Shown here one piece after another: positions 13,992 through 53,325 of a stretch of 64,000 nucleotides of DNA. The notes below the pieces were generated by a model that made no database searches, was not told the DNA's origin, and saw only the letters and a program-made list of their open reading frames with translations. How positions within the stretch are numbered: position 1 is the stretch's first letter; each line of letters starts with the position of its first letter. The DNA lies in assembly GCA_937138415.1 (NCBI GenBank), contig CAKZPA010000041.1:1072-65071 (forward strand). Direction: 5' to 3'. Origin of the DNA: an uncultured Nitrospiraceae bacterium. Its GTDB lineage: Bacteria; Nitrospirota; Thermodesulfovibrionia; Thermodesulfovibrionales; SM23-35. Made by a program: the position numbers and the translations under genes.

Positions 13992-14248
13992 CGCACTCCA
14001 CTCCACGATAATAGGGAAAAAGGCGCCTGTCCCGTTTAGCCTACTTAATAAATTTTTCATCGAGGGCACTTTTTGTTGAATTCGACTCACAAAGAAGAGG
14101 ACGAGAGGGAAAAGCAGCGCAATTTCTCACACACGATCGGAGCCGACGGGCATCAAAGTGTTCAAAGAGCGCCATGTGGTTCATTTCTGGGCGTACCGCA
14201 CCATTGACGCGTTTTGTGCAGCACTTTCTGAAGAAGAGGAGAAGATCT

Positions 14249-14545
14249 TCAGGTCGTATCAGCAACAATCCGACGATGCTCGAGTAAGAAGATATTCTTC
14301 CAAAGATAGCCTCTGGCCAGGCGAAACCATATCCTCCTGGCTGTCTGGATCACCTGGCCTCCGATCTTCAGAAGCCTGAGTCTGAGTTGCTGGATCTGCA
14401 TCGAGGCAAACTCCGTATTCTTCAAAGCTTCCTGGAGTCTCAGCACAAGCCGGTATGCCGCCAGATGCAGGAAGAGCCTGAACTGATTTGCCACAGAGCG
14501 GTGGCAACTCAATCGGTAAACTTTCAGTCCGTTTTTAAACTCATA
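14249..14545 (-). mobile_element. IS1380-family transposase, C-terminal fragment only (5'-truncated remnant)
   Basis: ..EFKNGLKVYRLSCHRSVANQFRLFLHLAAYRLV..LRLRLLKIGGQVIQTARRIWFRLA matches the conserved C-terminal block I recall for IS1380 transposases. An in-frame stop sits at 14546-14548, and no N-terminal or DDE portion is present. Confidence 0.6.
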
Positions 14546-14646
14546 CTACATCATCGATGCCGTCTTCATCAGTGTCCGCCGCATGGGCACTATTGAGTCC
14601 AAGGAATAAGAATATGAGGAGCGAAATGCTCATCACTTTTTTTCAT
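14541..14646 (-). pseudogene. Stub of a secreted-protein gene, cut off next to the IS fragment
   Basis: GGAGG-ATG at 14646, then an A7 tract, then the out-of-frame sequence MSISLLIFLFLGLNSAHAADTDEDGIDDVV-stop. With A6 the two parts would read as one signal peptide, MKKVMSISLL... Confidence 0.3.
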
Positions 14647-15306
14647 GGTCCTTACCTCCTTATTTTTCCCGGTCTTCGCGATTCCGAATCGCGCGCTTTT
14701 TTCTGTTCATCTCATACCACCCCTCAAGTCACAAATAAGTCACAGATCCGGTGAAGAGGGTGCGCTTATTCCCCTCGAGTGGCTCGTGAAAGCGAAACGG
14801 CATTTGGACCCTAATGACATGCAAGGGCCTTCTCTTTGATCCTCACGGAGAAGATTCTCTACACCCTTTGGCGGCGGGTATTGTGTGAAAAGTGACCCGA
14901 AAACGCTGAATGTGCGGCGCTCTCTATCCGACAGGGTCGTGCCGCGAGCCGCCGGTAAGGACAGCGCTGGCGCTTATCGCGCGCGGCGTCGTCGAATGGA
15001 TATGTCGATGAAATTTACTTTGACGCCATGGTGACAGACGACAACGCGCCGCCGCAGTGCGAAAAAGGCGCCTGTCTTTTTCCTCCCGTGATATGAGTCA
15101 CAGCAGGCTGATCCAGCCCCGCGTATCGTAATCCCAAAACACACGGCATATGTTTCGAAGAGATAAATGCCGGGCAACCGCGAAACACAAAGCCATAAAT
15201 CCTGATATGCGGATAGGATGGCTGGGCCGCCGAAGAAACGAGGCCTCCCTCCTTTTTTCAGACGTCCGTTTCTTTTAGAAAATGAACTCTATGAAGGAGG
15301 TACTCC

Positions 15307-17562
15307 GTGAAACGAAAAAGAGATTTTGATTTGAAGATGGGATCGATCCTTCCTCTCATGGGGTTATTCTGTATCCTGTTCATCTCCAACTCCTGGGGTG
15401 ACTCCCCAAAAACTTTGCCCTCCGATGAAGGCACCGACGCAATCATAACCGGCGAGTTGACGGTGCTCGTCATCGATGATTTTGACAACAGACATGCCGA
15501 GGTCCTCTACCATTTAAAGGAAATCAAAAGCGGCAAGGTCTTCAATCTTCATTTCAAGAATGAACCGCCGGGCAAGCTTCGGACCGGTGCGATCATCACC
15601 GTCCGCGGGAAGAAGAAAGACCGCGATATTTATCTCATGGCTGATACAGGCGGCACCCAGGTGGTACAACTTGTTCCGTCAGCCCCGGTTGTTGCCGGCA
15701 ACCAGAAGACGCTTGTCATCGTCGCGAACTTTCTCGACTCGGCAGTAGCGTGTTCCGTTTCTGATATAGGATATCGGGTGTTCTCGGATCCCCCCAACGC
15801 ATCAGTGAATGCGCTCTACCGCGAGATGTCATTCGACCAGTTGTGGCTCACAGGCAACGTCGTTGGCCCTTTCACAATCAACTATTCCACAACGTCTGCC
15901 TGCGACATCTCGGCATGGGCGTCCGCCGCCGATGCGGCCGCAATGGCGAGCGGCCTGAATCTGTCAAACTACAGCCGGAAGATTTACGTCCTGCCAAAAA
16001 CCAACCCATGTGGATATATAGGCGTAGGCACGCTTGGCGGAAATCCCAGTAAGTCGTGGATTTTCCGATGCGATAGGAGCGACACCTTCGCCCACGAGCT
16101 CGGGCACAACTTCGGCATGCTCCACGCATCAACGCCCACTGATGAATACGGCGACACATCGGATATCATGGGATACGGCGGCTTTGGCTTGCGCCACATC
16201 AATGGCCCGCATCAGGATCAGATAGGATGGCTCAACCCGATCCAGATAACCGGAATAGTCGAGAGCGGCGTATACGCCATTGCGCCGCTCGAACTGAATC
16301 TCTCGCAGGCGCTCTATCCGCAGATTTTGATGATACCGAAACCCGACACAGGAGAATCATATTATCTTACGTACCGGCAGGCTATCGGGCTCGACGCCGG
16401 ACTATCGTCCATTTATCTCAAAGGAGTGAACATCCACAGGTACAAAAGTGATACCGCGACTCGCACGTATCTCCTCGGTGTTCTCGCTGACGGGGAAAGC
16501 TTTACCGATTCTTTGAACGGGGTGACAATAACGCAGTTGAACCGCACCGATCAGTACGTTACGGTGCTGGTGCATCTTGACCACGCACCTGTTTGCGTAA
16601 ACAATGCGCCCGCGGTCAATATAACGCCAGTGAGCCAGAACGCCAACGGAGGCTCGTCCGTTACCTACTCAGTATCTCTGACGAATATGGACACTATTGA
16701 CTGTGCTCAAGCCACATTCTCATTGGCGGGCGAGGTGCCGGAGGGATGGATAGGAACAGTATCGCCGGCAATGTTGACTCTTCTACCGGGTGCGATGGGT
16801 TCGGCATCTCTGACGGTCACATCGCCCACTACCGAAGCGGCAGGCGACTATACAATAACTATCGCTGTCGCTGACGGTGTAACCCCTGCCCGACTAGCGT
16901 CACGGACCGCAACCTATACCGTTTTGCCAACGCCCGTTTGCACCCCATCGGCACCACTCGTACGCATATCGCCGGCGATGCAATCAGGACAGCCTGGCTC
17001 TACGCTCGCTTACACGGTATCAGTGATGAATAAGGACAGTGTGGACTGCGCCGCTACACCTTTCTCACTGACAAGTTCATTGCCCGTCGGATGGATGGGA
17101 TCGGTTTCCCCCTCGGCATTGACCCTCTCGCCGGGCGCGGGCATGAGCGCGACTCTCACGGTGACATCTCCAACAACTGCGGTCGCAGGCAACTATGGAA
17201 TATCGGTCAGCGTTTCCGGTAATGCCGCGCCTCTACATGCAGCCACCGTTAACGGCACATACTCAGTTACTGCTGATGCAACGCCGCCAACGGCTCCTTC
17301 TTCACTCACGGCCAAACTCGTTCGTGGGACTGTGAACCTTTCCTGGTCTGCGTCGACCGACAATGTCGGAGTGACCGGGTATAAAGTCTGGCGCAACAAC
17401 GCGGTCATTGCGAAGACAACCAGCACGCAATACGCGGATTATTCGGTATCGGCCGGACAGGCCTATACCTATTTCATAACCGCTTTTGACGCCGCAGGGA
17501 ATACCTCGGTCTCGAGCAACAAGGCGACCGTCACGATAAGTTCGACGGCGAAGAAAAAGTAG
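15307..17562 (+). CDS. Secreted metzincin-type zinc metalloprotease (M11/gametolysin-like). Carries two tandem beta-sandwich repeats of about 115 aa and a C-terminal fibronectin-III domain.
   Basis: AGGAGG 7 nt upstream of the GTG start. Signal peptide is LMGLFCILFISNSWG. HELGHNFGMLH is an HExxHxxGxxH motif, followed by DIMGY. Tandem repeats lie at 16606-16950 and 16951-about 17274. The Fn3 region reads PPTAPSSLTA..NLSWSASTDNVGVTGYKVWRN. Confidence 0.75.
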   Translation: MKRKRDFDLKMGSILPLMGLFCILFISNSWGDSPKTLPSDEGTDAIITGELTVLVIDDFDNRHAEVLYHLKEIKSGKVFNLHFKNEPPGKLRTGAIITVRGKKKDRDIYLMADTGGTQVVQLVPSAPVVAGNQKTLVIVANFLDSAVACSVSDIGYRVFSDPPNASVNALYREMSFDQLWLTGNVVGPFTINYSTTSACDISAWASAADAAAMASGLNLSNYSRKIYVLPKTNPCGYIGVGTLGGNPSKSWIFRCDRSDTFAHELGHNFGMLHASTPTDEYGDTSDIMGYGGFGLRHINGPHQDQIGWLNPIQITGIVESGVYAIAPLELNLSQALYPQILMIPKPDTGESYYLTYRQAIGLDAGLSSIYLKGVNIHRYKSDTATRTYLLGVLADGESFTDSLNGVTITQLNRTDQYVTVLVHLDHAPVCVNNAPAVNITPVSQNANGGSSVTYSVSLTNMDTIDCAQATFSLAGEVPEGWIGTVSPAMLTLLPGAMGSASLTVTSPTTEAAGDYTITIAVADGVTPARLASRTATYTVLPTPVCTPSAPLVRISPAMQSGQPGSTLAYTVSVMNKDSVDCAATPFSLTSSLPVGWMGSVSPSALTLSPGAGMSATLTVTSPTTAVAGNYGISVSVSGNAAPLHAATVNGTYSVTADATPPTAPSSLTAKLVRGTVNLSWSASTDNVGVTGYKVWRNNAVIAKTTSTQYADYSVSAGQAYTYFITAFDAAGNTSVSSNKATVTISSTAKKK

Positions 17563-20600: not shown

Positions 20601-21359
20601 GTTGCGTCATGAGGCGACTTACTGATGCTCCAGACGTAGTCGACATCCTGGTCTGCCGTCATGTTCTTGCTTAAGGACTGAGGCACCGCCTGCCTCACAG
20701 GAATTGAGACGGTCTTCTTGCCCGTTTTAAAATCTTCCTGTTCGAACATATACGACTGCAGAGACGATCCCGGATATTGACTCGCGCCGAGCGCAAGCCT
20801 GTTCGCCCAGTCAATAACGCACGTGGTACCGGAATTCTGTGTGATTGTAAGTATTCGATAGATCACCACGTCGACGCCGCCTGTCACTCCGGCTCTTTCA
20901 GCCATGACGGTAGAAGACATCCGGCAAGAGGAGTCGGAGAAGGCATTGAGTTGTGGCTGCCGGATTATCTGTGGTTCTGTTATCGAGTCGTAGCCGATCT
21001 TCCCGGACGTTTTATAGTCGGCTGCGATGATGACGTTATAGGTGACCGGAGTTCCACTGTTACCATTTCTGGCAATGAGCCGGTGCGGAACGAGGTCGAG
21101 TTCGTTCCAGCCCTTACCGAGGTTTCCCCGTTTGATAACGCGTGTCGTTGCCACCCAACGGCTCTGGATCGGGGCAAACAAAATTTCCATCCGCATTCGG
21201 CAGAAAAATTGTGCCATCGTTGTCGCAGCCGTTAAATGTGAAATTCACCGTGTTGGGCGGGTTGGTGTAAGCAGCGCCGGCGCTGCCCGACAGTCCCGCT
21301 ATCAAAACCAACGTGAGCATCGCGTGGACGAACACGTAAAAATACTTCTTGGATTTCAT
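17672..21359 (-). pseudogene. Giant secreted adhesin-like protein of about 1228 codons. The reading frame is broken by a single-nucleotide frameshift near 21121-21130 (authentic or an assembly error).
   Basis: AAAGGAGGGG then ATG 21359 gives signal peptide MKSKKYFYVFVHAMLTLVLIAGLSGSAGA. That frame stops at 21114. The 1181-aa frame (17672-21217) becomes protein-like only from NLGKGWNELDLV. 3688 nt minus 1 is exactly 1229 codons. Two tandem GSLKITK..C..GY(T)W.. domains lie at about 18590-19195, followed by a SpaA/prealbumin-like domain. Confidence 0.65.
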
Positions 21360-21551: not shown

Positions 21552-21590
21552 TAAAAAAAACCGGGCTTCCTTTTTCTCTCGGCAGCCCGG
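21552..21590 (-). terminator. Intrinsic terminator acting as the riboswitch expression platform
   Basis: Minus strand reads CCGGGCU-N16-AGCCCGG followed by U8 (plus-strand A-run 21553-21560). Confidence 0.75.
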
Positions 21591-21672
21591 CCGTCTTCGA
21601 TGCGATGACATGAAGACCGAATGCTTTCCGTCCCCTCCTCACGAAGGGTTTGGCTTTATCGGAGATAAATCG
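21581..21672 (-). promoter_or_regulatory. c-di-GMP-I (GEMM-I)-like riboswitch aptamer
   Basis: The core GCCAAACCCUUCGUGAGGAGGGGACGGAAAGCAUUCGG was compared with the Vc2 core as remembered, GCAAACCAUUCGAAAGAGUGGGACGCAAAGCCUCCGG. 28 of 38 positions are identical. The 6-bp GNRA-capped hairpin is preserved with one compensatory pair. A second hairpin is GUCUUC/GAAGAC. The 3' element is GCCGGGCUGCC. Confidence 0.6.
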
Positions 21673-21977
21673 AGTCTTGCGGTCGCCTATGAATGCTCTG
21701 TTGGCTCGGTCCCACCTCCTACCGCACCCGAAGATACCTGCGCATCATGCCCCGTTCCTTTCCGTTCTTCTCTTCGGAGCGGGAAGAAGTTCTCTCTCGC
21801 TTCCCTCGGCACCCTCCGCCCTTATCATCGCGCCGGTCGCGGATGAGAGCGGCCGACGCCCGAGAGGTGTCACGCGCGACGGGAGCGCGCGCAAAAGGCG
21901 TCATTTTTTACGGCCCTTCGCCGATAAATTCTATATCGGCAAACTCGAAAGCGCAAGGGAAACCCCTTTCAAAGTAC

Positions 21978-22006
21978 ACTATACCGACGCGCGACGCGCG
22001 TTGCAA
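21978..22006 (-). promoter_or_regulatory. Candidate sigma70 promoter for the adhesin leader transcript
   Basis: Minus strand reads TTGCAA (22001-22006), 17 nt, TATAGT (21978-21983). Confidence 0.4.
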
Positions 22007-22110
22007 TAGAAAAGTTGCTTTTTACATTGGCACTATTGCTTTTTTCAAAAAAAATTTCCGCCTCTTCTATTCCATGCAAAGGAATCGGGTAAAATAGCTT
22101 AGTATCTTTC

Positions 22111-23076
22111 ATGGGGGGCTGGCGCGTGCACACAATGATTCGGTGGATCCGGAAAAACGCCCGTACACCTTACGTCCACAACACACGCACGCCTTTTCGG
22201 TCCGGCGGCTTCGCCGAGAGCAATGCCCGCCGACGTTCCCTCGGAGATCTCTTCGTCATCTCCTTGATCCTCCTTGCCGGAACCCTTTTCCTCCTTGCCT
22301 GCGCGCCGAAATATAGCCGGTACGATCCTGACCAGAAGCAGGCGCTGAGAACCCTCGCCGGCGGCGTCGCGGGAGTGCTCATCGCGGGCAACACGGGCGG
22401 AGCCATTGTCGGCGCATTCGTCGCGGACGTTGCGAGCGTCGCGACGATCAAGTACGAAGACAGGCTCCTCGAAAACGGAGATCAGGCCGCGAAGAGATAC
22501 CTCGACCAGGAGAAGAAAGCGGAGGAGAGAAAAGAGCAGGAACGGAAGGCGGAAGAATTGAGAGAGCAGGAGAGAAAAGCGGATGAGAGAAAGAGGCGGG
22601 AAGAGAAAGCGGAGGAACCGAAAGAGCGGGAAAAGAAGGCGGAGGAGGCAACACCGGAAGAGCAGAAGGCGGAAGAGGAGAAGCTCCGCGAGAAGAAAGC
22701 GGCGGAGGAAAGGGAGGCAGAGAAGAAAGCGGAAAAGAGATTGCGGGACAAGCGGGTGAAATTGATCATAGAAGATTCATCGCTCGCCTCGCATACGGTC
22801 GTGACCGGTTCCGTGGTGAAAGCCGTCGTGCGGTACACCGTCCTCGCTCCCGAGGGGACGGAAAAAGTGACCCTCACGGAAACGAGGAGGCTGTGGACGG
22901 CGTACACCGTCATCGAGATAGACACGAGGGACGTCGTGAGGGAATCCGGAACCTACCAGTCGACGATTCAGTTCAAACTGCCGGAAGATCTCCCGAGAGG
23001 ATACTGCGTTCTCTACACCACGGTGTCCGACGGGAGGCAGATAAAAACGGCCCGCTCCGTGATGAACGTTCTGTGA
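22111..23076 (+). CDS. Lipoprotein with a glycine-zipper segment, a long E/K/R/A charged repeat region and a beta-rich C-terminal domain
   Basis: Lipobox-like LFLLAC. Glycine zipper is GGVAGVLIAGNTGGAIVGAFVA. About 80 aa of (E/R)KAEE-type repeats follow. The start codon is uncertain. Confidence 0.55.
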   Translation: MGGWRVHTMIRWIRKNARTPYVHNTRTPFRSGGFAESNARRRSLGDLFVISLILLAGTLFLLACAPKYSRYDPDQKQALRTLAGGVAGVLIAGNTGGAIVGAFVADVASVATIKYEDRLLENGDQAAKRYLDQEKKAEERKEQERKAEELREQERKADERKRREEKAEEPKEREKKAEEATPEEQKAEEEKLREKKAAEEREAEKKAEKRLRDKRVKLIIEDSSLASHTVVTGSVVKAVVRYTVLAPEGTEKVTLTETRRLWTAYTVIEIDTRDVVRESGTYQSTIQFKLPEDLPRGYCVLYTTVSDGRQIKTARSVMNVL

Positions 23077-25463: not shown

Positions 25464-25915
25464 GACAAAAAAGAGAAAACCGATTTCGAGACAGGTTCTC
25501 ACATACTCCCGCAGAAAGTCATGAAATTGGCAATGGGTGTTCGCGATGCATGGAAAGCACCGCGGACGGACATCGGGAATTTCCCGGATAGTATCGGTAC
25601 GATCTCGGGATAAAGACCGTTACGGCTTGCTCGCTCGTTTGATTGTCATGCACCAGCTCGATGGCGCTTCATCTTGACCCGCTACCGCCGAGACTACTTC
25701 AAAACTTTGCCGAAGAAGCTCCCTGACGAAAACCTTCCGTGACGCGAGCCGGCCAGCCGCCCAAGCCGGACCATCGGCCCATTCGGGTTCATTCGCCGGT
25801 CGCTGACGAGAAATGCAGGCGAACAATTCGGTATCGATGACGCGTTGCCTCCTTTCCGCACAAGGAGGGGGGGAGGGGCCTCCCGGGGGAAGGAGGCCCC
25901 TCGTGGGAGGGAACC

Positions 25916-45762: not shown

Positions 45763-46860
45763 ATGAACTCGAAAATAACGCTCAGCGTCATCAAGGCCGA
45801 CGTCGGAGGCTACGTGGGCCACTCGTGCATTCATTCGGATCTCCTCGAGATGGCGAAGGAGCGGCTCGGCAAAGCCCGCGAGCAAGACGTGCTCATCGAC
45901 TTTCACGTCGCGCGCTGCGGGGACGACCTCGAACTCATCATGACGCACACGCACGGCCCCGATTCGGAGACGATTCATAAACTCGCATGGAATACGTTCG
46001 TCGCCTGCACCGAAGTCGCGAAGGAACTGAAACTCTACGGCGCGGGGCAGGATCTCCTGAGCGACGCGTTCACGGGAACGGTGAAAGGCATGGGGCCGGG
46101 CGTCGCGGAGATCGAATTCGAAGAGAGGAAGAGCGAACCGGTCATCATCTTCATGGCCGACAAGACCTCGCCGGGCGCGTGGAACCTCCCGCTCTACAAG
46201 ATCTTCGCGGATCCGTTCAACACCGCGGGGCTCGTCATCGACCCCGCGATGCACGAAGGGTTCGTCTTCGAGGTCCTCGATGCGTACGGCCGCAAGAAGA
46301 TCACCTTCTCCTGTCCGGAGGAGATGTACGAACTCCTCATGTTCATCGGTGCGATGAGACGATACATGATCAGGAGCGTCCGGAGGAAAGACGGCACGAT
46401 CGCGGCGGTCGCCTCGACGCAGAAGCTGAGCCTTATCGCGGGCAAGTACATCGGCAAAGACGACCCCGTGTTGATCGTTCGGTGCCAGTCGGGGCTCCCG
46501 GCCGTCGGCGAGGTGCTCGAGCCCTTCGCGTTCGCGCACATCGTCGAGGGATGGATGCGCGGTTCGCATCGCGGTCCGCTCATGCCCGTCGCCTTCTACG
46601 AAGCAAACCCCTCGCGCTTCGACGGTCCGCCGAGGGTCATCGCTGCGGGTTTTCAGATCAGTCACGGGAAATTGATCGGGCCGAGAGATCTCTTCGACGA
46701 TCCCGCATTCGACGAGGCGCGGAGAAAGGCGAACGAGATCGCGAACTACCTGCGGATGCACGGCTCGTTCGAGCCGCACCGCCTCGGGCTGGAAGACCTC
46801 GAGTACACGACGATGGACAAACTCATGAAGAAACTGGAGAGCAGGTTCATCCCCGAATAG
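45763..46860 (+). CDS. fbp: Bifunctional fructose-1,6-bisphosphate aldolase/phosphatase (class V FBPase)
   Basis: ITLSVIKADVGGYVGHS N-terminus. The length of about 365 aa is typical of this family. Confidence 0.9.
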   Translation: MNSKITLSVIKADVGGYVGHSCIHSDLLEMAKERLGKAREQDVLIDFHVARCGDDLELIMTHTHGPDSETIHKLAWNTFVACTEVAKELKLYGAGQDLLSDAFTGTVKGMGPGVAEIEFEERKSEPVIIFMADKTSPGAWNLPLYKIFADPFNTAGLVIDPAMHEGFVFEVLDAYGRKKITFSCPEEMYELLMFIGAMRRYMIRSVRRKDGTIAAVASTQKLSLIAGKYIGKDDPVLIVRCQSGLPAVGEVLEPFAFAHIVEGWMRGSHRGPLMPVAFYEANPSRFDGPPRVIAAGFQISHGKLIGPRDLFDDPAFDEARRKANEIANYLRMHGSFEPHRLGLEDLEYTTMDKLMKKLESRFIPE

Positions 46861-49453
46861 CTTTCGTGACGAACCGTTCTTCGTCTTCGCGGGTCTGGAG
46901 TTTCCCCCGCATCTTCTCGTGGAGCAGCTCCCTGAGAAGGTTCGAATACACGGGGCCCGGGGAGATGCCCATCTTCTTCAGATCCTCGCCGGTCAGGAGC
47001 GGCTTGACGTGCCGCAGTTCGGTGAGGTATCGCGATATCGCCTTCTGTTTCTGCCGGTCGCGGCTGAGCGCCATCGCGAAGAGAATGACCTCGAGCTTCA
47101 GGGGGTGCAGAAGCCGGTAGATATCGGCCGGGTCGCGAAGCGGCAGCTGCTCCACGACGTGGCGTGCGGACGCAATCCCGCGGATGATCGTCTCCTTGAT
47201 GCGCGGCGACGGTGACAATCGCTCCATGGTCGACCTGATATCCTCCTCTTTCAATCCCGACAGGAGCGCCATCAGGTAGAGTATGCCCGTGTCCGGTTTC
47301 TCCTCGAGGAAGAGGAGCTTGAACCACGAGAGGGTTTCGTGCATGGACTTGAGCGTCGCTTCGAGGTCCTCCGTAAAGATGAGATTCGGGCAGATCACCT
47401 TCAGGAGACCGAATTCGGAGACACGTTTGAGCGTCCTGATCGGGTCGGTCTCTTCGAACAGCAGGAGCAATTCTTCGTAGAGCCGCGGGCCCGACAGCTT
47501 GTCGAAGAGGTTCATTTCGATCGTGGACTTGATGAGATTTTCCGTGTGCTTGCTGATCTTGAACCCGAACCGCTCCGAAAATCTCACGGCCCTGAACGCG
47601 CGCGTCGGGTCCTCGACGAAGCTGAGATTGTGGAGCACCCTGATCGTTTTCTCCCTGAGATCCCGCTGGCCGCCGAAAAAATCGATGAGGACTCCGAAAT
47701 CGTTCGGGTTCAACTTCACTGCGAGCGTGTTGATCGTGAAGTCCCTCCGATACAAATCCTTCTTGATCGACGAGGTCTCCACCTTGGGGAGCGCCGCCGG
47801 AGATTCATAGTACTCCGTGCGCGCAGTCGCGACATCGAGTTTGAACGAACCGTGAAAGATTTGGGCGGTGCCGAACTTCTGGTGCGTCCTGACCTTCGCC
47901 CCGAGCTGTTCCCCCATCGTCCGCGCGAAGAGGATTCCGTCCCCTTCGATCACGATGTCCAGATCGAGATTCTCCTCGCCGCGGAGGAGATCCCGAACGG
48001 AACCGCCGACGAGATACGCCTGAAATCCGAGCGACTCGGCAACCTCGCCGGACCGCTTGAGGAGAGTGAAAATCTCGGGCGGAAACTTTTCCCTGAGCCA
48101 TGATGAGAGGTTCCTGCCGGCCGTCAGCCGTTCCCTGCTCACCGTCTCCTCGATCTTCCGGCGGCGCAGGAATTCCTCGTAGAGCGTGCGGAGGAGATCC
48201 GTCCGCGTGATCGCGCCGATGATCGTATCCTGCTCGACGACCGGCATGAACCGCTGGTTCTGCTCGATCATGAGCGTTTCGATCTCCCGTATCGGCGTGA
48301 GCGGGCCGACCGTGATCGCATCGGCAGTCGCGAAATCGATAGCCTTGCTCTTCCCGAACCCGAGGAACAGCGCCTTCTCGACGATCTCGCGCGAGAGGAG
48401 GCCGACGTACGCCTGGCCACGTAACACGGGAAGGACGTTCACCCCGTACCGCGTCATCATCGTCTCCGCCTCTTTGATCGGCATGTCCCACTGGATGCTG
48501 ATCACCGGCTTCGTCATGATATCGGAGGCAACCTTCGCCGGCTTCACGCTCGTCCGAATGAGTTCCAAAAGACGGTCCTCGACGAGTTCGAGAGACTCTC
48601 CCTTGATGGTGGCGGCGGCCGCGGTCGGATGACCGCCTCCCCCGAATTCCCTCATGACGCGCGCGACGTCGAACTCCGGCACCTTGCTCCGCGCGACGAG
48701 GAGGATTTTCCCCTCCATGCTCAAAAGGATGATCACCGCGTCGACGTCCTCCATGTCGATCATCCTGTGCGCGAGGTGCGCGGCGTCGCCGACGTAGCGC
48801 TCGTGCGATGCTTTCGCGACCTTGATCCGAACGCCACCGATCACCATTTCCTTCGACGCCTGGACGAGTTCGTTGAGCAGGTCGAACTCCTCCATGCTCA
48901 ACTCCATCTTGACGAAGCTCGAGACGATATTGAGATTCGCGCCCCTCTTCAGGAGGTACGCGGCCGCCATCAGATCCCTCTCGGTCGTTGACGGGAAGAG
49001 GAGGCATCCCGTCTCTTCGTAGATGCCCAGAGCGAGGATCGTCGCCTCCATCGGCGAGGGGTGGAGTTTCCTGTTCTTCAGGATCTCGGTGAATATCGTC
49101 GCGGTCGCGCCGACCGCCTCGATCTTCTCGAGCTCACCGCGGATATCCCCTTTCTGAAAGGGATGGTGGTCGTAAATGTGAATTCGAACGTGTTTGGAGC
49201 TCAGCAACTCAGCGAGGGGACCGATCCGATCGGGTATCTTCGTATCGACGATGATCAGTCGAGTCACCTTCGCGAGATCGATCTCCTTGACGCGCTTCGG
49301 TTCCACCGGACGGAACGCTTCGATAAAATCCCTGACCTTCTTCTCCTGGGAACCGGGGAAGACGATCGCCGCCTCCGGATACAGCTTTTTCGCAGCGACC
49401 ATGGATGCGAGCGAATCGAAATCGGCATTCAAGTGAGACGTGATGATATCCAC
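46847..49453 (-). CDS. DHH/DHHA1 - tandem CBS - tRNA nucleotidyltransferase (CCA- or A-adding / poly(A) polymerase family) fusion protein
   Basis: N-terminal HLNADFDSLAS with a DHH motif (IYDHHP). A CBS pair follows. The class II NTase motif is GGSVRDLLRGEENLDLDIVIEGD. Confidence 0.8.
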   Translation of the reverse strand: MDIITSHLNADFDSLASMVAAKKLYPEAAIVFPGSQEKKVRDFIEAFRPVEPKRVKEIDLAKVTRLIIVDTKIPDRIGPLAELLSSKHVRIHIYDHHPFQKGDIRGELEKIEAVGATATIFTEILKNRKLHPSPMEATILALGIYEETGCLLFPSTTERDLMAAAYLLKRGANLNIVSSFVKMELSMEEFDLLNELVQASKEMVIGGVRIKVAKASHERYVGDAAHLAHRMIDMEDVDAVIILLSMEGKILLVARSKVPEFDVARVMREFGGGGHPTAAAATIKGESLELVEDRLLELIRTSVKPAKVASDIMTKPVISIQWDMPIKEAETMMTRYGVNVLPVLRGQAYVGLLSREIVEKALFLGFGKSKAIDFATADAITVGPLTPIREIETLMIEQNQRFMPVVEQDTIIGAITRTDLLRTLYEEFLRRRKIEETVSRERLTAGRNLSSWLREKFPPEIFTLLKRSGEVAESLGFQAYLVGGSVRDLLRGEENLDLDIVIEGDGILFARTMGEQLGAKVRTHQKFGTAQIFHGSFKLDVATARTEYYESPAALPKVETSSIKKDLYRRDFTINTLAVKLNPNDFGVLIDFFGGQRDLREKTIRVLHNLSFVEDPTRAFRAVRFSERFGFKISKHTENLIKSTIEMNLFDKLSGPRLYEELLLLFEETDPIRTLKRVSEFGLLKVICPNLIFTEDLEATLKSMHETLSWFKLLFLEEKPDTGILYLMALLSGLKEEDIRSTMERLSPSPRIKETIIRGIASARHVVEQLPLRDPADIYRLLHPLKLEVILFAMALSRDRQKQKAISRYLTELRHVKPLLTGEDLKKMGISPGPVYSNLLRELLHEKMRGKLQTREDEERFVTKAIRG

Positions 49454-49490: not shown

Positions 49491-50897
49491 CTACGCGGAA
49501 GAACGAACGACGATCTGGTCGCGACCTTTTCGCTTCGCGGCGTACAGGGCGTTATCCGCCAGACTGATGAGATCGTCGAAATGTTTTATCTTCTCGTCGG
49601 GGAACCCCGATATCCCGAAACTGGCGGTAATCGTGTGGCCTTTTCCCAGGTGCGGGAATTGCGTCGACGTGATCATCTTCCGGAGACGTCGGGCCTCGAC
49701 GATGGCTCCGTCGAGGGGAGTCTGCGGGAGAAGCAGGATGAACTCTTCACCGCCGTAGCGGGCGAAGAGGTCCGATTTCCTCGTATGCCGCTTCACGAGC
49801 TGCGCGAAATCCCTGAGAACGCAGTCGCCGACCCTATGCCCGTAGGTATCGTTGACCTTCTTGAAGTAATCGATGTCCATCATGACGCAGCTCAGGGGCA
49901 GGTGGTATCGCTCGGCACGATTGAATTCCTCTTCGAGCCGAGAGTAGAAGTACCGTATGTTGTAGACCCCCGTCAGATAGTCCGTGACCGAAAGCTTCTC
50001 GAGGTTCCCCCTCTCCCGGTCGAGCTTCTGAAAAAGGAACGCGTTGTAGAGGGCGTTCGACGCTGCATTCGCGAGCGCCACGCAAAAGTCCACCTCGCGT
50101 TTCGAAAAGGAGTGGTGGACGCGCGACATCCGCAGGACCATCGTCCCGATGACTTCCTCCCTGAAGAATATCGGGATCACGAGAATCGACTTGATGCCGA
50201 GGGGCGCAATGAGTTCTCTCACGCCTTTCATGATCGGATTCTTCTGGGCGTCCTGGATGATCACGGGCTTCTTGCTCGAGAGCGCCGCGGAGATCTCCGG
50301 GTACTTCCTGAGGTCGAGACGCAAATTCGTGAGGGTAGGATCCTCGAACGTCGCGAGGACCCGCGCAAACCTTTTCTCTTCGAGATTGACGCTGATCATG
50401 GAGCATCTCGTGGCGTGGAGCACCTCCGAAATCTTTTTCACGACGAGGTAGAGCACCTCTTTCGGGTTGAGCGTCGAAGAAGCGAGGTAGGTGAGTTCCA
50501 GGAGCGTCTCGAGGTCCTTCTTGTCCCGATAGAGGTTCTCGATGACGCTGCTCCTGTAAATGAGGGTTTTGAGTTTGTGATCGAGTTCTTCCTCGTAAAA
50601 CGGCATCACGAGATAGCAGTCGACGTTGGACTTGATCGCGGCGTGAATCCCTTTCGTCTGATCTCCGGAGATGATGGCGATCACGGGACAGGAGATACGC
50701 AATCCCTGCAGCTGGGTCAGGATATCGGGGCTGTTGACCATGAAGACCGACGGTTTTTTCTGCTCGATCTCCTCTCCGAGCGAGCGCTTGCCCTCACCGA
50801 AAAAATGGACCGTGTAGTACCGCCGGCGACGGAAGAACGACTTGAGGAACCGGATGACCGATTCGTCCTTTTCATATACGAGAACCGTCTTTTCCAC
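49491..50897 (-). CDS. Diguanylate cyclase: degenerate receiver - GAF - GGDEF
   Basis: GGEEF active site with RKSD (RxxD I-site) five residues upstream. A GAF block is present. The receiver-like N-terminus probably starts at GTG 50897 (MEKTVLVYEKDE); the track start at 50978 is an extension. Confidence 0.85.
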   Translation of the reverse strand: MEKTVLVYEKDESVIRFLKSFFRRRRYYTVHFFGEGKRSLGEEIEQKKPSVFMVNSPDILTQLQGLRISCPVIAIISGDQTKGIHAAIKSNVDCYLVMPFYEEELDHKLKTLIYRSSVIENLYRDKKDLETLLELTYLASSTLNPKEVLYLVVKKISEVLHATRCSMISVNLEEKRFARVLATFEDPTLTNLRLDLRKYPEISAALSSKKPVIIQDAQKNPIMKGVRELIAPLGIKSILVIPIFFREEVIGTMVLRMSRVHHSFSKREVDFCVALANAASNALYNAFLFQKLDRERGNLEKLSVTDYLTGVYNIRYFYSRLEEEFNRAERYHLPLSCVMMDIDYFKKVNDTYGHRVGDCVLRDFAQLVKRHTRKSDLFARYGGEEFILLLPQTPLDGAIVEARRLRKMITSTQFPHLGKGHTITASFGISGFPDEKIKHFDDLISLADNALYAAKRKGRDQIVVRSSA

Positions 50898-51133
50898 GGA
50901 AAGAATATAACAAAAAAATGAAAAAAAACCAAATCCTTTTTTTTTCGGCAACGTCACGAAACTACAATGACAAGACATCGTGGCATCGCTCCTCGCCGGG
51001 CTTCGGCCCGCGGGAAATGCTGCCCTGAGGCATCCGCATGATAAGACTATGGGAAGGATACGTTTTCTCTAACACGCGCGGGAAGCACGAACGACGGGAC
51101 AGAGGAGAAATCCGCAGCCGGAAACGACGGGTA

Positions 51134-53044: not shown

Positions 53045-53325
53045 AACTGAAAGACAGACATGCGAGACCCAGAACGGCTTAAACCTGAGGATCGAGCAAA
53101 TATTATGGGACGCGGGAGTGGGATGCGGTGAGCAGGCCTTCAGAAGCGAGAAGGAAGCCTAAAGCATCTCCCGAAGCATCCAAGCTGTAAAAGAGCTCAC
53201 GGTTTCCGTTTCTGGGATCGCATTCAAAGTATTCGGGAGCCCCGTAAGGGCAAGGAAGAGACGGTGAGCTGCGATCGCCGTCCGAAGAAGTGCAAAGACC
53301 CTTGCGGGGCTCTTTTTAGTTTTTC
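53045..53325 (+). ncRNA. Candidate orphan small RNA, class unknown
   Basis: Promoter: TTGAAA (53011-53016), 16 nt, TGaTAAAAT (53030-53038). No plus-strand ORF of at least 60 aa, and no SD-led ORF seen. Internal helices: 53068-53077 with 53206-53216, and 53216-53222 with 53270-53276. A terminator-like hairpin at 53295-53312 is followed by CUUUUUAGUUUUU. Confidence 0.35.

Follow-up and report, generated by a model that had tools for sequence, protein, structure and literature searches.

Class I riboswitches for cyclic di-GMP (GEMM-I) are typified by the Vc2 aptamer and in Rfam by family RF01051. The structural literature on Vc2 assigns clear roles to a handful of bases: of the two guanines of c-di-GMP, the first is recognised by G20 through its Hoogsteen face and the second by C92 through Watson-Crick pairing, with A47 intercalated between them (PMC4744006, PMC6140456). 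An inter-helix Watson-Crick pair, C44-G83, is universally conserved (PMC4744006). The cGAMP-sensing GEMM-Ib riboswitches have A at position 20, and wild-type Vc2, with its G20, discriminates against cGAMP (PMC6140456). Weinberg et al. noted in 2007 that a tetraloop receptor is almost always missing from GEMM RNAs whose loop is GYRA, and they proposed an ON model for the 78 of 322 GEMM RNAs in which a terminator overlaps the last helix of the aptamer (PMC1950547).

The element considered here lies in the leader of a surface-protein gene of an uncultured Nitrospirota. It is probably a c-di-GMP class I (GEMM-I) riboswitch of the receptor-less, GYRA-tetraloop type, acting as a transcriptional ON switch for the gene of a secreted SpaA/DUF5979 surface protein in a Thermodesulfovibrionales-like member of that phylum. 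It is an ordinary member of a long-known kind. The family, the bases that contact its ligand and the ON design with overlapping terminator have all been on record since 2007-2009, and a standard tool detects the element at a curated threshold, so that its novelty is low; its identification is useful for genome annotation and holds nothing new for riboswitch biology.

An Rfam scan at gathering (curated) thresholds was run on the window, that is, the whole 64-kb stretch of DNA that was analysed (genes and RNA elements given with coordinates lie on its minus strand unless a plus sign is shown). It returned two tRNAs and one riboswitch. The riboswitch is a match to GEMM-I clan CL00126 at 21663-21577, with 59.9 bits, an E-value of 1.2e-11 and coverage of the full model (positions 1-80). 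This bears out the preliminary description, which had claimed a GEMM-I-like riboswitch in this leader and whose quoted RNA string agrees letter for letter with the minus strand at 21672-21581. The best family at the site is RF03167 (c-di-GMP-I-GGC), whose cutoff of 59 bits is exceeded by a margin of 0.9 bit, and a lower-scoring family of the same clan, left unnamed by clan competition, is also above its own cutoff. The preliminary description had proposed a covariance search in which a score below the RF01051 gathering cutoff (which is 35 bits), together with the absence of a ligand response, would speak against the element. The search places the best clan family and a second one above their cutoffs, but clan competition masks the RF01051 score itself. 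When the stretch was shortened to exclude P1, RF03167 was again the best family, at 42.7 bits. No further riboswitch copy was found by the scan elsewhere in the 64-kb window, and an Rfam search of the 750-nt intergenic region for a second (tandem) aptamer or other structured RNA gave nothing above noise. Elsewhere in the window, at 53108-53182 (+), only positions 59-132 of the 6S RNA model are matched, and weakly so (30.2 bits, where the cutoff is 46.4; E 0.027).

The whole aptamer, with an extended P1, occupies 21665-21575; the Rfam match accounts for 21663-21577, and ViennaRNA pairs UCUCCG (21665-21660) with CG-A-GAGA (21581-21575). In the full-length structural alignment the two hairpins within P1, the AAA bulge in the first and a GNRA-type tetraloop (GUGA) are all present. 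The first hairpin (21653-21628) is closed by C21653-G21628, which corresponds to the 21-46 pair in flipped orientation, and by C21652-G21629; after these, the AAA bulge leads into the stem CCCUUC/GGAGGG (21648-21643 and 21638-21633) with its GUGA tetraloop at 21642-21639, and GAC occupies 21632-21630. The second hairpin (P3 of Vc2, P2 of Weinberg 2007) runs from 21625 to 21584 and has the base AGCA/GGCU, a middle helix around UUCGG/CCG, and the stem GUCUUC/GAAGAC (21617-21612 and 21598-21593), followed by the bulge G21592-G21591. The preliminary description had named CCCUUC-GUGA-GGAGGG, GUCUUC..GAAGAC and the 3' element GCCGGGCUGCC, and these were found at 21648-21633, 21617-21593 and 21591-21581, respectively.

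Rfam alignment places all the canonical ligand-contacting bases: G20 is G21654, A47 is A21627 and C92 is C21582. Both partners of the inter-helix C44-G83 pair are also present, as C21630 and G21591. Judged by these bases, the binding pocket is canonical. The element thus shares with RF01051 and Vc2 the helices, the AAA linker, the GNRA tetraloop, the G20, A47 and C92 contacts and the C44-G83 pair (PMC4744006), and, with RF01051, the position in the 5' leader of a surface-protein gene and a terminator that competes for the 3' strand of the last helix (PMC1950547). It differs from Vc2 in its GUGA tetraloop (of GYRA type) and in a short second hairpin without the 11-nt GAAA receptor that Vc2 has. 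From RF01051 it differs in an A.G mismatch near the base of the last helix and in the pair adjoining G20, which is C-G in the window and a strongly conserved G-C in RF01051.

This last difference deserves a closer look. The pair adjoining G20 is C21653-G21628, whereas both the RF01051 and the RF03167 consensus have G21-C46, an orientation not found in the window. The core of the window reads AAAG-CC-AAACC...GGGAC-GG-A-AAGC, that of the RF03167 consensus AAAG-GC-AAACC...GGGAC-GC-G-AAGC, and that of the RF01051 consensus AAaG-GC-AAAcc...gGAC-GC-A-AAgC (which includes GACGCAAAgC). Between the two consensus sequences, position 47 (Vc2 numbering) is the sole difference in the core, A being canonical and G the variant. 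The preliminary description had noted two deviations near the ligand-binding junction, an extra C in GCCAAAC and a G for C in ACGGAAAGC. They are the halves of one compensatory change from G21-C46 to C-G, and no ligand-contacting base is altered. Its count of 28 identities in 38 positions with the core of Vc2 is reproduced, although its 1-nt gap disappears once the preceding G of Vc2, which reads GGGCAAACC at this point, is included; the "extra C" is consequently a G-to-C substitution and not an insertion. The C-G orientation next to G20 would then be a lineage-typical isosteric variant rather than a change of ligand contact.

The flipped pair is by no means confined to this locus. The pattern AGCCAAACC-N(8-24)-GGGACGGAAAGC was searched in representative genomes, one genome per species, and the core with G20, C21-G46 and A47 occurs in at least 120 stretches. 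Among the matches listed, most come from Thermodesulfobacteriota or "delta proteobacterium" genomes, and others from Campylobacterota, some methanotrophs, Nitrosospira and one Nitrospirota genome. In an alignment of 94 flipped-pair RNAs, the window included, 94.1% of helix cells are paired (82.5% in shuffles) and 13 pairs are changed on both sides, values that none of 500 shuffles attains; when the 3' partners are slid, pairing drops to 27-50%. Four stem pairs of the first hairpin that the search pattern had left free covary across the 94 sequences. Two further columns left free by the pattern are invariant, that of C92 being C in 93 of 93 members and that of G83 being G in 94 of 94. The preliminary description had looked to homologous leaders for covariation. 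The leaders of the three closest homologues with DNA turned out to be without a GEMM element at E <= 0.1, and the covariation reported here comes instead from the class assembled by DNA pattern. Tetraloops in the alignment are mostly GYRA (32 GUGA, 24 GCGA, 12 GCAA and 10 GUAA). Downstream of class members lie genes for PEP-CTERM proteins, cadherin/Ig surface proteins, a DUF11 repeat protein, a subtilase, PAS sensors, cytochrome c and a sigma-54 activator, all of them typical GEMM targets. Flipped-pair aptamers also occur head to tail in single leaders, in Desulfosudis oleivorans and a Syntrophaceae genome (L082:7240-7324 and L042:3833-3915, each with a second aptamer downstream), which matches the tandem GEMM arrangement reported from delta-proteobacteria in 2007.

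The preliminary description had regarded the ligand as undecidable between c-di-GMP and 3',3'-cGAMP. The matter is less open than that, as G20 favors c-di-GMP. The element is like the 3',3'-cGAMP riboswitch (GEMM-Ib, Geobacter Gs1761) in fold and differs from it in having G at position 20 where GEMM-Ib has A (PMC6140456). Because position 20 is G, whereas cGAMP sensors have A, c-di-GMP rather than cGAMP would be the expected ligand, and a reading of the element as a cGAMP riboswitch was rejected on the identity of G21654. The organism is plausibly able to make c-di-GMP, since a likely diguanylate cyclase, of GAF-GGDEF architecture and with the motif GGEEF, is encoded in the window at 49491-50978. 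The Geobacter GEMM-Ib RNAs presumably also have a C-G pair adjoining position 20. In a further stretch, L109, the flipped C21-G46 pair is found together with A20 in one GEMM-I element (minus strand, oriented position about 4061; GACCAAACC...GGGACGGAAAGCC), and from its sequence this element is a candidate cGAMP-type sibling of the flipped-pair class. That the flip occurs there together with A20 suggests that it is lineage background and not itself a specificity switch.

Some care is needed with the Rfam label. The c-di-GMP-I-GGC family is an orphan variant reported from the variant search of Weinberg et al. in 2017, and we take "GGC" to denote the bases at 20, 47 and 92, going by the consensus comparison; a literature text search on "c-di-GMP-I-GGC" and on the core sequence yielded nothing informative. 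What the window has in common with RF03167 is an explicit P1, the 3' element AGCCGGGYUGCC and a second hairpin that is short and has no receptor. It differs in the core, where the model has ACGCGAAGC (G21-C46, G47) and the window ACGGAAAGC (C21-G46, A47): the G47 of the variant, when looked for at 21627, is absent and A is there. RF03167 is nonetheless the best Rfam label in 19 of 19 tested flipped-pair RNAs with A47, at 59.4-74.9 bits (L011:7683-7767 and L070:527-607 are examples). RNAs with the exact G47 core are few: the whole metagenome collection has 12 stretches, as against at least 120 of the window's A47 flipped type in representative genomes. RNAs that bear G47 are split in their best match between RF03167 and RF01051, which means that position 47 does not decide the label. 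To judge from the two consensus structures, the label seems to go with a short second hairpin without the 11-nt tetraloop receptor. As the distinguishing G47 is absent from its sequence, the RF03167 label is misleading here, and the element should not be filed as a GGC variant. The lesson for annotation is that an RF03167 label need not mean an altered pocket, the cutoff failing to separate the variant pocket from canonical receptor-less GEMM-I.

It might still be argued that the element is a riboswitch of variant specificity, either a true member of the orphan c-di-GMP-I-GGC group or a cGAMP sensor, with a pocket retuned by the flipped pair. RF03167 is, after all, the best-scoring family and above its cutoff, as it is for every flipped-pair RNA tested; G21-C46 is so strongly conserved in the canonical consensus that a subclass with fixed C-G could be meaningful; and the L109 element indicates that the flipped background can host cGAMP-like variants. 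We consider this very unlikely. The element has A at position 47, where the RF03167 consensus has G, and G at position 20, where cGAMP sensors have A (PMC6140456); the label is blind to position 47, the exchange of C-G for G-C is isosteric and compensatory, and the downstream genes are of the classic GEMM types. A milder proposal, that the flipped-pair receptor-less subclass differs from canonical c-di-GMP-I in ligand preference or affinity, for instance by sensing both c-di-GMP and cGAMP or by having a much weaker Kd suited to high c-di-GMP levels, is given only a slim chance; if it were true, the element would report a different signal than assumed.

Downstream of the pocket, a c-di-GMP riboswitch of this design would act through the intrinsic terminator at 21591-21553. 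Its 5' arm, GCCGGGCU, lies at 21591-21584 and its 3' arm, AGCCCGGU, at 21567-21560; in layout, CCGGGCU (21590-21584) is followed by 16 nt, AGCCCGG (21567-21561) and U8 (21560-21553), and C21582 and C21581 make inner pairs with G21570 and G21569. The preliminary description had placed a CCGGGCU-N16-AGCCCGG plus U8 terminator at 21552-21590; the structure is there, with its lower coordinate one base off, at 21553. An automated terminator scan, which has a loop limit of 8 nt, missed the 21591-21553 hairpin. The 5' arm of the terminator (21591-21584) is also the 3' strand of the last helix of the aptamer, and aptamer and terminator are for this reason mutually exclusive; the terminator loop takes in the 3' strand of P1 (21581-21575). 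In ViennaRNA the terminator hairpin alone has -18.4 kcal/mol, the minimum-energy fold of the whole leader -46.2 kcal/mol, and the best leader fold without the terminator -32.1 kcal/mol. The minimum-energy fold contains the terminator, which makes termination the default state. In the absence of ligand, then, the more stable terminator would form and transcription would stop at U8 (21560-21553). Binding of c-di-GMP would lock P1 and the last helix and make the 5' arm unavailable to the terminator, and RNA polymerase would continue into the gene, which begins about 190 nt further on. The strand overlap and the fold energies are computed properties of the leader, and from them we infer the dependence of switching on ligand. 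Both agree with the earlier proposal of mutual exclusion and a ligand-dependent ON switch, and an ON switch is the natural reading.

The terminator is strong enough to work without any aptamer, and no promoter was located for the leader, which might lead one to see here a chance resemblance to GEMM-I beside an ordinary constitutive terminator, for example at the end of an upstream small transcript. The E-value of 1.2e-11 in 64 kb, the full-length model with every key nucleotide present, and the finding that the terminator overlaps the helix in the same way in 50 of 110 related RNAs of the class speak otherwise. In addition, no gene ends upstream on the minus strand, and the nearest upstream ORF is divergent (22111-23076 (+)). 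A chance match was rejected on the covariance-model E-value and the class alignment, and is effectively refuted. The only sigma-70-like promoter match found near the aptamer lies about 300 nt upstream of it, TTGCAA-17-TATAGT at 22006-21978, the only such match in 21680-22110. That intergenic stretch, between the aptamer and the divergent gene (which encodes 321 aa), also contains G+C-rich inverted repeats such as GCGCGCGCUCCCGUCGCGCGUG.

Between terminator and start codon there is an A+T-rich spacer of 193 nt (21552-21360), without an Rfam match and with the ribosome-binding site GGAGGGG at 21373-21367. The regulated gene comes in two parts. The first (21359-21114) starts with ATG at 21359 and encodes a signal peptide; it comprises 81 codons and stops after a frameshift. 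The second (21217-17672) continues in the +1 frame, the frameshift falling within ACGGGGAAACC at about 21131-21121. The break is at a conserved motif, YxTG|NLGKGWNELDLVPHRL (Y-x-T-G | N-L-G-K-G-W), and parts the signal peptide from the remaining protein. When joined, the protein has 1,228 aa with DUF5979, DUF7601 and SpaA prealbumin-like domains. An NCBIfam search gave no name for it; its homologues are intact proteins of 1,000-1,400 aa, some of which are named "uncharacterized repeat protein (TIGR01451 family)" at source. The preliminary description had spoken of a giant adhesin gene. A large surface protein is indeed encoded, but at 1,228 aa it is large rather than giant, its gene is frameshifted, and "adhesin" would be a reasonable reading of its function. 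Cyclic di-GMP generally promotes surface attachment, with which an ON switch for a surface protein fits, and this SpaA/DUF5979 protein of an uncultured Nitrospirota would be a likely output of c-di-GMP signalling, on at high c-di-GMP. The pairing of RNA and gene is not conserved, since none of the three closest homologues with DNA (L002-L004; 62-77% identity over N-terminal parts) has a GEMM element upstream at E <= 0.1. Directly 3' of the closest of these homologues are group II intron domains (L002:5865-6144 (+); RF02001 with 78.4 bits and RF01998 with 38.6 bits).

The frameshift, together with certain features of the last aptamer helix, raises the possibility of a decaying relic, in which aptamer and terminator are still recognisable but useless, the target is a pseudogene and helix defects are accumulating. 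In the register of the model P3 has two non-standard pairs, A21622.G21587 and C21619.C21589, and two or more such pairs occur in only 12 of 94 class members. The score is near threshold and near the bottom of the flipped-pair class, at 59.9 bits against 59.4-74.9 in 19 others. The +1 frameshift (region 21112-21131) cuts the signal peptide off from the remaining protein, and both protein cluster P0001 and a second assembly (L001) have the same split. A relic is nevertheless unlikely. The ligand-contacting and tertiary-contact bases are all intact, as are the terminator, the ribosome-binding site and the start codon. The A.G site (alignment columns 47/84) is likewise G.A, A.G or C.A in other class members, and in an alternative register read from the sequence, CGG/CCG plus UCUUC/GAAGA with a 3-nt CGG bulge, P3 has eight Watson-Crick pairs; the last helix need not be regarded as broken. 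As for the frameshift, it falls in a G4A3 run and could be an assembly error, or a population variant from the same reads.

The contig that carries the riboswitch is also found in an ENA metagenome assembly (L001), where the G7 run at 25866-25874 is G8, the sole difference in 9.1 kb. Convergent with the surface-protein gene is a gene at 15307-17562 (+) for a secreted 751-aa peptidase that resembles M11 gametolysin and has NPCBM-associated (NEW3) repeats. G+C is lowest in the window (51%) at 14001-16000, a stretch that has short ORF fragments only and could be an island that was inserted or has decayed. The FtsZ of the window shares 83-84% identity with proteins of Nitrospirota/Thermodesulfovibrionales metagenome-assembled genomes. 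At 46847-49453, finally, an 868-aa protein is encoded that is an unusual fusion of DHH-DHHA1 and CBS with a poly(A) polymerase/CCA-adding head and RNA-binding domain.
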